Virus record (IMG/VR): IMGVR_UViG_2541047775_000007
Direction: 5' to 3' (one strand)
Length of the DNA: 43,098 bases
Source of the DNA: a virus
Taxonomy: Duplodnaviria; Heunggongvirae; Uroviricota; Caudoviricetes
Positions 2,240 through 37,930 of the stretch are shown in pieces. The notes under the pieces were generated by a model. It did not search any database and had not been told where the DNA came from. It saw only the letters and a list, made by a program, of their open reading frames with translations. The position numbers and the translations under genes were made by a program. Position 1 is the first letter of the stretch, and each line of letters begins with the position of its first letter.

Positions 2240-2950
2240 CGCCTATAAGGCTCTCTTACCAGCCGCGCCCTAACAGGCGCACACGATCTGACATTTGCAT
2301 CCAACTTCGTTACTTACGGCCCGTAAACGGGCTGCCCGGATAGGGAATCGATAACTGCTCTCCCATTTTATCCTCTTCAAGCTGGTGCTTTATGTAATCC
2401 TGTATCTTCGCCGTGTTCTTACCCACTGTATCGACGTAGTACCCTCTGCACCAGAACTCCCTGTTCCTGTATTTGAATTTCAAATCACCAAACTGCTCGT
2501 AAAGCATCAGACTGCTTTTCCCTTTCAGATATCCCATAAACCCGGATACGCTCATTTTAGGCGGGATCTCCACAAGCATATGGATATGATCTGCACAGCA
2601 TTCAGCTTCCAGAATCCGTACGCTTTTCCACTCACACAGCTTTCTCAAAATACTGCCTATTGCTCTACGCTTCTCTCTGTAGAACACCTGTCTTCGGTAT
2701 TTTGGCGCAAAAACTATGTGATATTTACAGTTCCATCGGGTGTGCGCTAAGCTCTTTTCGTTCCCCATTGGGACCCCCTTTTGATTTCTTGTTTGACACT
2801 TGCAGTTGCCAGACCGCAAGGTGTTTTAACAAATCAAAAGGGGTTTTAATAACTGGCTCAAAGCTGAAAGCTTTCCGGAACCCCCAGCCTAGCTGGGGGT
2901 TTTCTGTGCACAAAAAACCCTCTGTAGTAACAGAGGGTTTTGTTCATTCA
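2240..2950 (-). mobile_element. IS200-like insertion sequence (boundaries approximate)
   Basis: Y1/HUH transposase ORF plus two strong hairpins upstream of it (acccccagc/gctgggggt near 2886-2908 and aaaccctctg/cagagggttt near 2908-2938), typical of the IS200 left-end structured region; ends not mapped precisely. Confidence 0.6.
2310..2768 (-). CDS. tnpA: IS200/IS605 family Y1 transposase TnpA (about 152 aa)
   Basis: Translation MGNEKSLAHTRWNCKYHIVFAPKYRR...HIHMLVEIPP...YIKHQLEEDK is recognisable as IS200 TnpA; ORF-track start at 2819 is probably an upstream extension. Confidence 0.88.
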   Translation of the reverse strand: MGNEKSLAHTRWNCKYHIVFAPKYRRQVFYREKRRAIGSILRKLCEWKSVRILEAECCADHIHMLVEIPPKMSVSGFMGYLKGKSSLMLYEQFGDLKFKYRNREFWCRGYYVDTVGKNTAKIQDYIKHQLEEDKMGEQLSIPYPGSPFTGRK

Positions 2951-8905: not shown

Positions 8906-8942
8906 ATTTACATTGCACTCCTCTTGTGCCATAGTAATCGGG

Positions 8943-9018
8943 CACTGGCAAAATCCAGTGCCGGGATTGGTCTCCCGGATTACTAAGTGGCGCATACCAC
9001 GCCAGACGTGGTTTTTTT
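8943..9018 (+). promoter_or_regulatory. structured leader: three consecutive hairpins ending in an intrinsic terminator (ccacg-ccaga-cgtgg plus T7)
   Basis: Hairpins cactgg/ccagtg (8943-8960), ccggga/tcccgg (8961-8978), and terminator 8996-9018; no credible ORF. Confidence 0.45.
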
Positions 9019-9176
9019 ATGCGTATAGCACAGTCATGCCAGAATTATGGTGGGCTGAATGGGGGTCCGAAAGGACGCCGGTACCACTTAGGCCGGTAAG
9101 ACCAACTCCGTTCAGTTCACCACCATCTGATTGGTCTCAGCGGTGGTGATGTAATTCGCTAAGTGGAGACGCCATC

Positions 9177-9833
9177 ATGAACGCTCAACTCATCCCCGTA
9201 TTCAACGGCACTATATCTAACGAAACAGCCCTACTTTGTAATGCCCGCGATCTGCACACTTTTTTAGGTGTTAAAAAGGTGTTTGCAGCATGGATTACAA
9301 ATCGCATATCAGAATACGAATTCATTGAAAATCAAGACTATATTTTGCTTTCCAATTTGGGAAAGCAAACATCTGGTAGAGGCGGCCACAACCGCAAAGA
9401 GTACCACCTCACCCTTGATACAGCCAAAGAGCTGGCGATGGTCGAGCGTAACGAAAAAGGTCGCCAGGTGCGACGCTACTTCATTGAATGCGAGAAACGT
9501 TTAAGACAACAAGAAACAAAAGTGGAGAAGGTCTTGTCAGGCTTCATGCCCGCCATTATGGAGGCGATCAAGCTGGAAGACAAAAAAGAATACAGCGCCC
9601 CACTGAAGCCCGGCTACCGCAGCCTGATTCATTCTCCGTCTGGTGTTCTCGGACTGACGGAGAACTCACTGCTGATGAATCTGCTGAACCAGTTACAGGA
9701 AGACGGGCACGACGTATCGGGCGCGGCGGCGGAGCTGACCACCATGTTCTGCTACATCGTCGGTGTGAGCAAATGCCTGCGTGATATCCAGACGCACGCG
9801 GAGTACATCAACGACAAGGCAGGGTTCTTCTGA
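9177..9833 (+). CDS. phage antirepressor, AntA/AntB-type N-terminal domain plus C-terminal domain shared with the 7769..8026 protein (218 aa)
   Basis: N-terminus MNAQLIPVFNG...KVFAAWITNRISEYEFIENQDYIL...RYFIECEKRL resembles AntA/AntB antirepressor family; intrinsic terminator at 9843-9865 follows. Confidence 0.7.
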   Translation: MNAQLIPVFNGTISNETALLCNARDLHTFLGVKKVFAAWITNRISEYEFIENQDYILLSNLGKQTSGRGGHNRKEYHLTLDTAKELAMVERNEKGRQVRRYFIECEKRLRQQETKVEKVLSGFMPAIMEAIKLEDKKEYSAPLKPGYRSLIHSPSGVLGLTENSLLMNLLNQLQEDGHDVSGAAAELTTMFCYIVGVSKCLRDIQTHAEYINDKAGFF

Positions 9834-9906
9834 CAGAACGGCGGCACAGGGATGTGCCTTTAAATAATTCTGTACAGATTGCAGACCGGGGGTGAATAGC
9901 GTACTA

Positions 9907-9921
9907 TTACCTTAAAGGTAA
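9907..9921. promoter_or_regulatory. operator-like palindrome TTACCTTAAAGGTAA (motif A)
   Basis: Identical to the 8798 site; 27 bp upstream of the start at 9948. Confidence 0.6.
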
Positions 9922-9947
9922 ACCATGTGTTTACATGAGGAGGAGAT

Positions 9948-10157
9948 ATGGGATTTTGGTTCGCTCGTACAAAAACGAGGGATAATGCACCCAGCCCTCA
10001 GGCAAAAAATGCAGAAGTTCCGGCGTCAGCGCAGGTTAACAAGCGTGGTGGTGTGTATATCTCATCACAGCAAATTTCTGAGCTTCCTGAGGTTAAGGAG
10101 ATGCGTCGTCTCGCTGCTGCAATCGTTAAACAGGATCTTGCCACTGTAAGGAAATAG
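9948..10157 (+). CDS. small hydrophilic protein (69 aa), first gene of a two-gene cassette
   Basis: Very strong RBS gaggaggagat before ATG; stop overlaps start of downstream gene. Confidence 0.6.
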   Translation: MGFWFARTKTRDNAPSPQAKNAEVPASAQVNKRGGVYISSQQISELPEVKEMRRLAAAIVKQDLATVRK

Positions 10158-11023
10158 TGTTGTTAGCTCTTCTAATTATCCCCATTCTGGTTAGTGGTTA
10201 TATTATGATAACCGCTAACCAGTATCATTATTTCCGTTTATACCGACATGAAGGCCAGCTTCTTTATATGAAAGTAGCTGCATTAGGTACATATTGCCTT
10301 GTTGCTTCGGTAATAATTGCCGCATTTATAAAATATAAATATCCTGATTTTCACCTAGTTCACGATATGGTGGAAACTTTTAATGTAACGTCAAAACCAG
10401 AAACAGATAGAATTTACATGTGGCTGCTTCTTCTCTCAGCCACATCCATTTGCTTCTCTTTGTGTTATGTGTCTGTTGTGTGGGTGAAAGATTTTCTTCT
10501 TGGTTGTTTTTATAAACGTGATATTTACGAGCAAAAAACAGAGGCAATGAAGGCCAGAGTACTGCGAAAAACTTACTCGCAAGGTTCTTTAGACTTACTA
10601 TTGCTTGATGCTATTGAATCGGATCCTAAACGACCAATGCTGATTACTTTATCATCAAACAAAGTGTATGTTGGAATAATAAATGGTTCTGGTGAACCAA
10701 CGGAAAATCAGGGTCCGCATCAGCACATATCTTTTGTTCCTTTAATGTCAGGATACAGGAACAAAGACAACTTATCTGTCACATTCACTAATGCTTATCC
10801 AGGAGAAATACAGGTCAAGCGGACTGCAGCAATAAGAGGAATTAGCAGAAAGAAAGTGCCAGGACTTGAGATCATGGTGTCTATTGACGAAATAAGTTAT
10901 ATATCATGGTTTGATTTTGAAGTATATAAAGCAACAAATAACAAAGTAGAATCCAGGGGGCACGTTATTCGTGTTACCAAAAATGGAAGAAATATATATC
11001 AAAGAAATAGCAAAAAAGAATAG
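10157..11023 (+). CDS. AT-rich membrane protein (288 aa; about 3 N-terminal TM helices plus about 170-aa C-terminal domain), candidate superinfection-exclusion/defence protein
   Basis: GTG start with RBS aaggaaa, overlapping upstream stop; markedly lower GC than flanking phage genes; strong terminator downstream. Confidence 0.6.
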   Translation: MLLALLIIPILVSGYIMITANQYHYFRLYRHEGQLLYMKVAALGTYCLVASVIIAAFIKYKYPDFHLVHDMVETFNVTSKPETDRIYMWLLLLSATSICFSLCYVSVVWVKDFLLGCFYKRDIYEQKTEAMKARVLRKTYSQGSLDLLLLDAIESDPKRPMLITLSSNKVYVGIINGSGEPTENQGPHQHISFVPLMSGYRNKDNLSVTFTNAYPGEIQVKRTAAIRGISRKKVPGLEIMVSIDEISYISWFDFEVYKATNNKVESRGHVIRVTKNGRNIYQRNSKKE

Positions 11024-11043
11024 CCCGCGCTGCGGGCTTTTTT
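11023..11043 (+). terminator. rho-independent terminator (gcccgc-gct-gcgggc plus T6)
   Basis: GC stem followed by TTTTTT immediately after the 10157..11023 stop. Confidence 0.7.
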
Positions 11044-11115
11044 GTGGACGAAACAAAAGCCAGTGCTACACTCATTGACGCCACATTGAGGTGGCTTATA
11101 GATGGAAATTTCACA

Positions 11116-11277
11116 ATGAAAAAAGCATTTGCTGCACTGTTCGTTTTGTTGTCTCTGGTAGCTTCAACTCAGGCCTTTGCCGGTCGTTGTCAGCACGACA
11201 GCGATACTGCCGCTGACGGCTCCCGCTGCGGTGGGCGTTCTGCGGATTCCCGCCCGGGTGGCGGTGGCATTCGTTAA
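11116..11277 (+). CDS. small secreted Gly/Cys-containing peptide (53 aa precursor, about 31 aa mature)
   Basis: MKKAFAALFVLLSLVASTQAFA signal peptide, then GRCQHDSDTAADGSRCGGRSADSRPGGGGIR; candidate promoter TTGACG-N17-ATAGAT upstream; weak RBS. Confidence 0.45.
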   Translation: MKKAFAALFVLLSLVASTQAFAGRCQHDSDTAADGSRCGGRSADSRPGGGGIR

Positions 11278-27847: not shown

Positions 27848-27884
27848 TTGACATTTAACGCACAAATTATTACCTTTAAGGTAA
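27848..27884 (+). promoter_or_regulatory. promoter-like TTGACA (27848-27853) with operator TTACCTTTAAGGTAA (27870-27884)
   Basis: Consensus -35 hexamer followed by a motif A palindrome, pointing toward the tRNA island. Confidence 0.5.
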
Positions 27885-28206: not shown

Positions 28207-28283
28207 GTGGCATTAGCTCAGTTGGACAGAGCAACCGCCTTCTAAGCGGTTGGTCGCAGGTTCGAATCCTGCATGCCACGCCA
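28207..28283 (+). tRNA. tRNA-Arg (anticodon TCT), phage-encoded
   Basis: Manual cloverleaf: acceptor gtggcat/atgccac, D-arm gctc...gagc, anticodon stem accgc/gcggt with loop CTTCTAA, T-arm gcagg-ttcgaat-cctgc, discriminator G plus encoded CCA. Confidence 0.85.
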
Positions 28284-37211: not shown

Positions 37212-37796
37212 ATGAAAAGTATCCAGGACGTCCGCAGGCAAAATCTCAACGACTTGATCGACCGTGAATTCAATGGTGTTCAGACGCGGATGGCTGAAAA
37301 ACTTGGAACTCAGGCAAATCTGGTAAACCGCTGGGCTCTTGGCAAGAAGGTTATCGGCGACCAGGTTGCGCGAAAAATTGAAGCTGCCGCCAATAAACCC
37401 CGTAACTGGCTTGATATCGATCGCTCGCTTTCTCAGGAAGGTTTTCAGCCTGTCGGACCAAGCGACATTGGTCAACTGGCGGCTCACAACCTGAAACGCT
37501 GGATGAGCGAAAGCCGCGACCTTTCAACGCAGGGAAAACTTCACCGCGCATCCGGCGTCGCCCAGGTAACAATCAGTCGCCTGTTAAACAATGAGGTCAG
37601 CGTTTCCATTTCCACCCTGGAGAATGTTGCATCCGCATTCGGGCGTCACGGCTATGAATTACTGATTCACCCGCACGACCCTGCGACCATCAACTATGAC
37701 CGCTCGCGCTACGCATTGTTACCCGAAACCGAGAAAGCAAAGATCGAAAGTTACATTGAATTTGTCATCAACCAGAACGAAAAAAACAAACAATAA
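37212..37796 (+). CDS. phage repressor with two tandem HTH (XRE-type) domains and no recognisable LexA-like autocleavage domain (194 aa)
   Basis: Two segments matching the Q..LA...G.....VSR HTH pattern; no S24 peptidase motif seen by eye; divergent from Cro-like gene. Confidence 0.65.
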   Translation: MKSIQDVRRQNLNDLIDREFNGVQTRMAEKLGTQANLVNRWALGKKVIGDQVARKIEAAANKPRNWLDIDRSLSQEGFQPVGPSDIGQLAAHNLKRWMSESRDLSTQGKLHRASGVAQVTISRLLNNEVSVSISTLENVASAFGRHGYELLIHPHDPATINYDRSRYALLPETEKAKIESYIEFVINQNEKNKQ

Positions 37797-37853: not shown

Positions 37854-37930
37854 TTACCTAACGGGTAATTTTTTTAACTCATATCTATTGACATCAAACC
37901 AGATACGCATAATTATTACCTCAACGGTAA
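37854..37930 (+). promoter_or_regulatory. PL-like promoter region: operator TTACCTAACGGGTAA (37854-37868), TTGACA (37888-37893), operator TTACCTCAACGGTAA (37916-37930)
   Basis: Consensus -35 flanked by two motif A palindromes upstream of the plus-strand early operon. Confidence 0.55.

Follow-up and report, generated by a model that had tools for sequence, protein, structure and literature searches.

A translationally coupled gene pair in an exchangeable slot of a Uetakevirus-like Escherichia coli prophage: a candidate phage-exclusion or abortive-infection module

The DNA analysed here, called the window, is the whole 43,098-nucleotide stretch of IMG/VR virus record IMGVR_UViG_2541047775_000007, which is a Uetakevirus-like (phiV10/epsilon15 type) E. 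coli prophage. In a slot between its tailspike/antirepressor genes and its ejection-protein genes lies a pair of overlapping open reading frames (ORFs), a small one of 69 amino acids (aa) and a large one of 288 aa that encodes an inner-membrane protein. The family to which the pair belongs is genuine, large and mobile, with no description in the resources that we searched, and we tentatively propose that it is a phage-exclusion or abortive-infection module. The locus contains the following features:

9879..9907, plus strand: putative sigma-70 promoter of the slot, read by eye and part of the phage backbone, with -35 TTGCAG (9879-9884), a 17-nt spacer and -10 TACTAT (9902-9907)
9907..9921, no strand assigned: perfect operator palindrome TTACCTTaAAGGTAA across the -10 and the start site, belonging to a set of such sites spread through the phage
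9937..9945, plus strand: Shine-Dalgarno (SD) sequence GAGGAGGAG of the small ORF, the first cassette-specific sequence past the left junction
9948..10157, plus strand: small ORF, 69 aa, with an ATG start and a TAG stop at 10155-10157
10150..10235, plus strand: mRNA structure covering the large-gene start, with an outer stem and an inner hairpin, from RNA folding
10157..11023, plus strand: large ORF, 288 aa, with a GTG start, encoding an inner-membrane protein (PHROG 3630)
11022..11044, plus strand: bidirectional intrinsic terminator, AGCCCGCGCTGCGGGCT followed by TTTTTT, phage backbone and common to the other cargos of the slot

The original prediction, made from the letters of the window, described a 69-aa ORF with a strong ribosome-binding site that ends where a 288-aa ORF begins with GTG. 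Both ORFs were found, and G10157 is common to the TAG stop of the small ORF and the GTG start of the large ORF (TAGTG overlap), with an AAGGA at 10148-10152, 4 nt 5' of the GTG. Because the most conserved segment of the family in the alignments, LLIPILVSGY, begins at residue 5 of the large protein, the large ORF starts at either GTG 10157 or TTG 10160 and its N-terminus is well defined; distant homologues have ATG at the equivalent start position. The large gene had also been described as AT-rich, and its GC content is indeed 36.2% compared with 48.8% for the window, which places it among the 0.4% of 867-nt windows with the lowest GC. The small ORF has a backbone-like GC content of 48.1%.

The start of the large gene lies within a predicted mRNA structure. 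Folding of the RNA from 10125 to 10235 gave -34.2 kcal/mol (z = -5.1), and none of 200 shuffled sequences was equally stable. The outer stem of the fold pairs the SD and GTG of the large gene (10150-10159) with 10226-10235, and an inner 15-bp hairpin (10187-10222) falls within codons 11-22. This inner hairpin is kept in homologues from Enterobacterales and Morganellaceae (73% of cells paired, versus 24-54% in slid controls), and two of its base pairs show repeated compensatory changes (UA 11/CG 7/AU 2, and CG 7/UG 7/UA 6), a comparison to be read with the caveat that the encoded peptide itself is conserved there and the sequences are related. The conserved hairpin and the sequestered SD and start codon suggest that translation of the large gene may be coupled to that of the small ORF by RNA structure.

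The association of the two genes extends far beyond the window. A match to a hidden Markov model (HMM) of the small protein was found directly 5' of the large gene in 54 of the 54 loci for which upstream sequence was available. Loci of Brachymonas, Bowmanella, Acidobacteria and metagenomes have an ORF of 63-132 aa ending within about 45 nt of the large-gene start, and eight further loci (in P2-like phages, Cronobacter phage phiES15, an IncC plasmid and four metagenome contigs) have one of 58-82 aa ending -4 to +35 nt from it. An HMM built without these eight loci recognised four of their eight small partners. Across all loci, the spacing between the two genes was -4 to +43 nt, and at no locus examined was the large gene found without the small one. 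The two-gene cassette of the original prediction thus recurs in phages, plasmids and metagenomes. Judged from this gene order, the pairing is ancient and extends across phyla, and the small protein is an obligatory partner.

When the pair degenerates, the large gene appears to go first. Three genomes of Arsenophonus endosymbionts (L017, L019 and L021) carry a large gene with 2-12 stops and/or frameshifts together with a small ORF whose core is open. Two E. coli genomes have kept the small ORF while a gene for a DUF2335 membrane protein replaces the large gene; in E. coli 4/4 (L003, 4109-5056) and likewise in Ecol_542, a small ORF with R33C and 97% DNA identity is followed by DUF2335. This arrangement is either a recombination remnant or a case of the small protein serving another membrane partner. 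A large gene that decays first and is never found alone shows the asymmetry that would be expected for an effector and its antidote.

The same observations fit a toxin-antitoxin (TA)-like addiction or stabilisation module, which would kill or arrest cells that lose the element or its labile antidote and would have no direct anti-phage role. The antidote-first order, the coupling and the decay asymmetry are what such a module would show, relatives of the pair are found on conjugative IncC plasmids and integrative elements, and YafO TA pairs occupy the same slot in other strains. However, the small protein does not have the DNA-binding domain of a type II antitoxin, and placement in the P2 defence hotspot beside bSEFIR (described below) also counts against it. 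We consider a pure addiction module unlikely, noting that it overlaps with the proposed exclusion or abortive-infection module because many TA modules are themselves defence systems.

The small protein has a disordered N-terminal part that starts with the aromatic/basic motif MGFWFAR, a beta-hairpin around the invariant G34 and a helix at residues 47-68, with no signal peptide and no transmembrane (TM) segment. In the AlphaFold model, the pLDDT was 83-92 over the helix and below 50 for residues 1-25, and the hairpin was short. While close homologues are found in Escherichia and its neighbours only, the small partners have a common core, in which a hydrophobic strand is followed by a turn carrying an invariant Gly, a further strand and a helix, and which in Enterobacterales reads VxVxxRGGxYIPSxEIxxLPEVKxMQxxAxxIV, and many of them start with an aromatic/basic motif (MGFWFAR, MFRRAF or SFFRRVF). 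A search of 23 diverse small partners against Pfam (E up to 0.1) gave single chance matches only, and a PDB profile search gave nothing. The motif RGGxYIxSxEI had raised the idea of an AbrB/MazE-like antitoxin, for which Pfam gave no support in the 23 members; the hairpin-helix resembles half of the AbrB fold by eye only.

The prediction of about three N-terminal TM helices for the large protein matches three hydropathy peaks and the helices of the AlphaFold model. The protein can be divided as follows:

10157..10492, plus strand: membrane part, residues 1-112, from hydropathy, charge counts, per-region entropy, AlphaFold and family alignments, composed of TM1 (1-19, with the highly conserved LLIPILVSGY), the basic conserved loop 1 (20-35), TM2 (36-58), the variable loop 2 (59-85) and TM3 (86-112)
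10586..10921, plus strand: predicted Sm/LSm/Hfq-like beta-barrel, residues 144-255, with a basic insert at 216-238
10922..11020, plus strand: variable Lys/Arg-rich C-terminal tail, residues 256-288, with the highest regional entropy and low pLDDT

The tail, described earlier as Lys-rich, indeed has 9 Lys/Arg among the last 33 residues. The AlphaFold model of the large protein, based on a 22-sequence alignment (pLDDT 73), has long helices at 2-20, 34-61 and 81-117, shorter loop helices at 22-30 and 67-75, and, after the TM region, two short helices (127-139 and 145-154) that lead into a beta-barrel. A helix followed by a five-stranded bent beta-barrel, the hallmark of the Sm fold, is thus predicted in the large protein, and the soluble domain is not a featureless segment. 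As for the Sm1 and Sm2 motifs, there was no Pfam LSM/Hfq match (E up to 1), and sequence and profile searches of the PDB gave nothing below E = 0.4. A Foldseek search of the viral predicted structures in BFVD gave nothing below E = 1e-3.

Loop 1 has a net charge of +1, loop 2 of -1 and the segment after TM3 of +4, and these charge counts favour a topology with the N-terminus out and the C-terminus in. With such a topology, the barrel, the basic insert and the Lys/Arg tail would be cytoplasmic, on the same side as the signal-less small protein. The family conserves TM1, loop 1 and the Sm core. Among 52 diverse relatives, K169, Y171, S198, G199, R201 and Y214 are invariant and G173, P181, E183, P195, Y200 and F252 are nearly so, all of them in the barrel. 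Close relatives differ mainly in the periplasmic loop, TM3 and the juxtamembrane segment, as well as in the insert and the tail.

A word-indexed search recovered only 28 relatives of the large protein, in Enterobacterales. A profile search of 1.84 billion cluster representatives (clusters at 50% identity) recovered 2,339 relatives with E up to 1e-3 and 903 with E up to 1e-10, most of which are 250-300 aa long and match from end to end. The statement that no family is recognised holds for Pfam, NCBIfam and PADLOC, in which neither protein had a match (E up to 1 for Pfam and PADLOC), but PHROGs includes both proteins in families of unknown function, the small one as phrog_5739 and the large one as phrog_3630. 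Pfam and PADLOC searches of the 52 diverse relatives gave scattered chance matches only (for example, AbiEii with E = 0.009), and the phage and plasmid homologues of the pair had no PADLOC match. The remote-homology and structure checks that the original prediction had called for thus yielded a predicted Sm/LSm/Hfq-like barrel and a family of 2,339 clusters but no PDB or Pfam match. A literature search for the RefSeq accession found no paper, and the accessions are absent from the DefensePredictor supplements.

Relatives of the pair are found in several kinds of mobile elements. In P2-like phages, the pair is found either between gpA and the portal gene or at the end of the genome. In ST15-OXA48phi14.1, a phage of Klebsiella, the pair (gp13-gp14) is followed by one 69-aa ORF (gp15) and then by a bSEFIR gene (PADLOC E = 7e-103), and in Salmonella phage SEN5 it is gp46-gp47, at the genome end. 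The gpA-gpQ (old/tin) locus of P2 is a documented defence hotspot (bioRxiv 10.1101/2021.01.21.427644); homologues are located in this hotspot, between gene A and the portal gene Q or cos, and the window pair is not. In prophages of Citrobacter and Pectobacterium and in phiES15, the pair is at the integrase-att junction, and a Uetakevirus-like prophage of Providencia also carries a relative. IncC conjugative plasmids have the pair beside a RecD/Nhi-like helicase, and islands carry it with an integrase, a transposase, Phd, HigB, Prim-Pol, ImmA/IrrE or an orphan methyltransferase. The TIR gene after the pair in the Klebsiella P2-like phage was considered as Rst_2TM_1TM_TIR; the TIR protein is the bSEFIR protein, and the pair had no Rst match.

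Other relatives are found in housekeeping settings: next to T2SS/HD-GYP genes in Bowmanella, and next to LPS-core, pilMNOP-SecDF and lgt-thyA genes in metagenome contigs. The original prediction had named orthologues with a known function in non-lysogenic contexts as evidence against it; about half of the distant relatives do lie in housekeeping settings, but no known function is attached to them. In two metagenome contigs (L059 and L060), copies of the pair lie near the replication origin, at gyrB-recF/dnaN and adjoining rpmH-rnpA-yidC, which may be a coincidence or a preferred region. Overall, the mixed contexts appear to fit a small self-contained mobile module and are no proof of a defence role.

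These settings bring in a housekeeping or stress-related membrane complex, such as an Sm-ring channel of the MscS kind or a tethered RNA or ligand binder, that would be hitch-hiking on mobile elements. The family is large and phylogenetically broad, several of its members lie among envelope or housekeeping genes, there is a distant relation to the widespread and uncharacterised DUF6338, and the order of three TM helices and then an Sm-like barrel is reminiscent of MscS. On the other hand, the distribution is patchy (28 of 5,426 complete E. coli genomes), and the low GC content and the hotspot locations also speak against it. We regard this explanation as very unlikely.

The slot itself is a compact unit of the phage. 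When phages TL-2011b and phiv142-3 and a number of E. coli prophages were aligned with the window, the cassette junctions fell at about 9925 and about 11016. On the left, near-identity covers the end of the antirepressor gene, a small hairpin, the -35/-10 region and the palindrome, to about 9924; on the right, it resumes at about 11017, taking in even the last codon and the stop of the large gene. The -10 and the operator are kept in prophages with other cargo, and in K_EC180 despite a different upstream sequence. A strict sigma-70 scan called no promoter at the slot, and the TTGCAG-17-TACTAT promoter was read by eye. The terminator has a GC-rich stem of 7 bp (11022-11038) followed by TTTTTT. 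From these alignments, the promoter, operator and terminator are phage backbone and the pair is swappable cargo in a fixed slot. The original prediction placed the pair between an operator-bearing promoter and a strong terminator; both are present, but they belong to the phage backbone and not to the acquired cassette.

At least seven alternative cargos occupy this slot in E. coli prophages, the present pair included. The others are a 59-aa ORF with a YafO-family toxin (in two size variants), two tiny ORFs, a 210-aa hypothetical protein, a DUF4760 protein and a DUF2335 membrane protein. Among the 5,426 complete E. coli genomes, 472 have the slot flanks, 28 the large gene and 30 the small ORF; in about 440 genomes the slot holds cargo other than the pair. 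Lateral acquisition, as originally proposed, is supported by the finding that an identical promoter, operator and terminator enclose at least six further cargos among related prophages of E. coli. Some E. coli genomes, FDAARGOS_1257 among them, have a small ORF with 100% identity to that of the window next to a large gene with only about 89%, a contrast that implies either that recombination has occurred where the two genes meet or that the large gene evolves faster. Just 3' of the slot (11116-11277, plus strand) is a 53-aa ORF with a signal peptide, MKKAFAALFVLLSLVASTQAFA, which matches PHROG 14503 ('membrane associated protein', moron category) and is kept in all slot variants.

The operator of the slot is one of many in the window. 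The palindrome TTACCTTNAAGGTAA has 16 sites in the window with up to 3 mismatches, compared with 1.3 expected, and none of 100 shuffles reached 16. The 15-bp sites are positioned as follows:

7678, 8798, 8891, 9907, 27870, 34749, 34811, 36757, 37094, 37142, 37854 and 37916, in the window: 15-bp palindrome sites

The sites are nearly always at the -10/+1 of a promoter. Two lie between a divergent 76-aa Cro-like gene and the gene for a 194-aa protein with two helix-turn-helix (HTH) domains; others flank the early-right promoter on both sides, precede the leftward early genes and the antirepressor operon, or stand before several accessory genes, including the promoter ahead of tRNA-Arg. The slot lies within a block of such operator-controlled accessory genes. 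In the cassette promoter, the early-right promoter (TTGACA-17-AATTAT, 37889-37917) and the antirepressor promoter (TTGATT-18-TATCAT), the operator starts at the last T of the -10. The set resembles a scattered-operator regulon, reminiscent of that of P1 C1, and the 194-aa double-HTH protein (37212-37796) is a candidate for the operator binder. Because copies of the palindrome also lie in the immunity region and at the antirepressor operon, control of the cassette by the prophage master repressor is probable.

Between the operator-bearing promoter and the AntA-type antirepressor gene ant (9177-9833), Rfam identified isrK (8942-9018, plus strand) and C4 antisense RNA (9043-9127, plus strand). 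This isrK-C4-ant layout is the P1/P7-type immI arrangement, here inside a Uetakevirus-like prophage. Since the antirepressor must be silent in a lysogen and has the same operator, the cassette is likely also off in stable lysogeny. The simplest reading is that the cassette would be repressed in the stable lysogen and released upon induction or early in infection. Elsewhere in the window, an operator-bearing TTGACA promoter (about 27850-27884) precedes a tRNA-Arg (TCT) gene (28207-28283, plus strand) on the opposite strand within the structural-gene block, and the Hfq-binding small RNA STnc490 (146 bits; 2778-2901, minus strand) lies at the left prophage edge, adjoining the lysis genes.

Such regulation would also suit a role in the lytic programme of the phage itself (taking over the host, remodelling the membrane or timing lysis, for example) that would come on together with the early genes once the repressor is gone. 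The operator register equals that of the early-right promoter and the antirepressor operon, and the neighbouring accessory genes are under the same kind of operator. The cargo, however, is dispensable and swapped, with the pair in only 28 of about 470 slot-carrying E. coli genomes, and the pair is also present in phages of unrelated types, on plasmids and at chromosomal sites outside phages. A lytic-programme role is quite improbable in our judgement.

Early-lytic expression, which the operator implies, is also compatible with superinfection exclusion at the step of DNA entry, as by SieA, Imm or Sp, in which the membrane protein, with a variable periplasmic loop and a basic Sm-like ring below the membrane, would block or trap the incoming genome or ejection proteins with no killing, and the small protein would be an assembly or regulatory partner. 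T4 imm and sp act through early-lytic expression. The slot between the tailspike/antirepressor and ejection-protein genes, the inner-membrane location of the large protein, and the periplasmic loop and TM3 as its most variable parts among close relatives are in line with this explanation, and the P2 hotspot also houses exclusion genes (bioRxiv 10.1101/2021.01.21.427644). Nevertheless, there is no similarity to SieB or to any exclusion family in Pfam or PADLOC, the strict pairing, the enforced coupling and the loss of the large gene ahead of the small one are signs of a dangerous effector and not of a passive block, and relatives are found in bacteria and contexts without a prophage. We hold entry exclusion without killing to be unlikely.

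Taken together, we propose that the two genes form a so far uncatalogued module for phage exclusion or abortive infection, designed as toxin and antidote, and we give this function a probability of about 0.4. In this proposal, the three helices of the large protein would sit in the inner membrane, and its Sm/LSm-like barrel with basic extensions would most likely face the cytoplasm. The membrane protein would be the effector, probably oligomerising via the Sm-like domain, and would compromise either the membrane or the entering or replicating phage genome. The small protein would restrain or regulate it as an antidote or regulator. The mRNA structure at the start site and the stop/start overlap would make synthesis of the large protein depend on translation of the small ORF, and the operator would tie transcription to the phage repressor, so that the module is made upon derepression or early in infection and not constitutively. 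The analysis shows the anatomy of the locus, the fold, the conserved pairing, the mobility and the genomic contexts, and from these we infer the topology, oligomerisation, toxicity, antidote role, defence phenotype and expression timing.

The neighbours of the relatives (defence hotspot, integrase-att junctions, TA genes and helicase) favour the superinfection-exclusion or abortive-infection assignment of the original prediction, while the operator argues against expression of the constitutive type. Several further points weigh against our proposal. Neither protein nor any of the 52 diverse relatives matches a system in PADLOC (PADLOC-DB v2.0.0). None of the other slot cargos had a PADLOC match or is a known defence gene, and the slot can therefore not be called a known defence hotspot on that basis. 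The housekeeping surroundings of about half of the distant relatives also fit a physiological membrane function. The confidence of the AlphaFold model of the large protein is moderate (pLDDT 73), and the small protein has no recognisable antitoxin DNA-binding domain. Finally, the operator at -10/+1 suggests that the genes are off while lysogeny is stable, an unusual state for a defence gene of a prophage.

If the pair does act in defence or as toxin and antidote, it would add a family of more than 2,300 clusters, from Proteobacteria to Acidobacteria, on phages, plasmids and islands. It would also represent an unreported effector design, three TM helices and an Sm-like barrel controlled by a tiny hairpin-helix protein, and the uncharacterised DUF6338-related proteins would gain a testable function. 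A bolder version, possible though doubtful, is a widespread, uncatalogued two-gene immune system in which a membrane-anchored Sm/LSm-like ring senses, at the inner membrane, phage nucleic acid or the loss of its labile small partner and then collapses the membrane; it would be the first Sm-fold effector in prokaryotic immunity and, wired to the repressor, would fire only when immunity is breached. Regardless, the slot is a compact promoter-operator-terminator expression site whose cargos are all under the scattered-operator repressor of the phage, and it offers a clean system for studying the timing of prophage accessory-gene expression and the exchange of cargo.

Among known exclusion proteins, P22 SieA, lambda/P22 SieB and T4 Imm/Sp are, like the large protein, phage-encoded inner-membrane proteins from accessory regions, and the slot is in a position that we take to be equivalent to the immI region where P22 sieA lies. 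They are single genes, whereas the present system has two genes and a promoter with a phage repressor operator. Classical superinfection-exclusion genes are expressed constitutively, and the cassette operator argues otherwise. SieB (PF14163) and other exclusion models in Pfam and PADLOC gave no match (E up to 1), with SieA not compared directly. Because a Citrobacter prophage that carries the pair has a separate SieB gene, the pair is distinct from SieB.

The pair resembles type II TA modules in that a common promoter and terminator serve a small first gene and a larger second gene coupled to it, and in that the second gene decays first, and a YafO-family pair occupies the same slot in phage TL-2011b. 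The genes are adjacent and co-directional, tightly coupled, and in antitoxin-first order. In type II modules, however, the downstream product is a cytoplasmic enzyme and the upstream one has an HTH, RHH or AbrB domain, while here the downstream product is a membrane protein and the upstream one has no such domain.

With regard to protein families, an MscS-type channel (Pfam MS_channel, with a TM3 pore helix and beta and alpha-beta domains) was not found in the large protein. Its predicted barrel differs from Sm/LSm/Hfq and WYL barrels in being fused to three TM helices with a basic insert and tail. One distant relative (P0208) matched DUF6338 (PF19865) with 28.7 bits (gathering threshold 26.5) over residues 2-157, the TM region, and another matched weakly, while the window protein (E up to 1) and the 52 relatives (E up to 0.01) had no match. 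DUF6338 proteins are uncharacterised and similar to the large protein in overall size, but the match is confined to the N-terminal part; the relation appears distant, at the superfamily level at most. DUF6338 features in one proteomics paper only, which notes no more than small proteins whose genes adjoin a DUF6338 gene in Pseudomonas stutzeri.

The nearest functional analogues of the pair appear to be AbiP/AbiC of Lactococcus and PdpSau of S. aureus prophages, which combine a membrane anchor with a small cytoplasmic nucleic-acid-binding barrel (PMC10127798, PMC13064643). AbiP binds RNA and single-stranded DNA, and PdpSau depolarises the membrane upon infection (PMC10127798, PMC13064643). The pair has no sequence or HMM similarity to these proteins and is not a member of their family. 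They act alone, with one or two TM helices and an OB-type fold, whereas the pair has three TM helices, an Sm/LSm-type barrel by prediction and an obligatory partner. What the large protein has in common with them is the N-terminal anchor, the basic small beta-barrel on the cytoplasmic side, as predicted here, and the location on prophages or plasmids.

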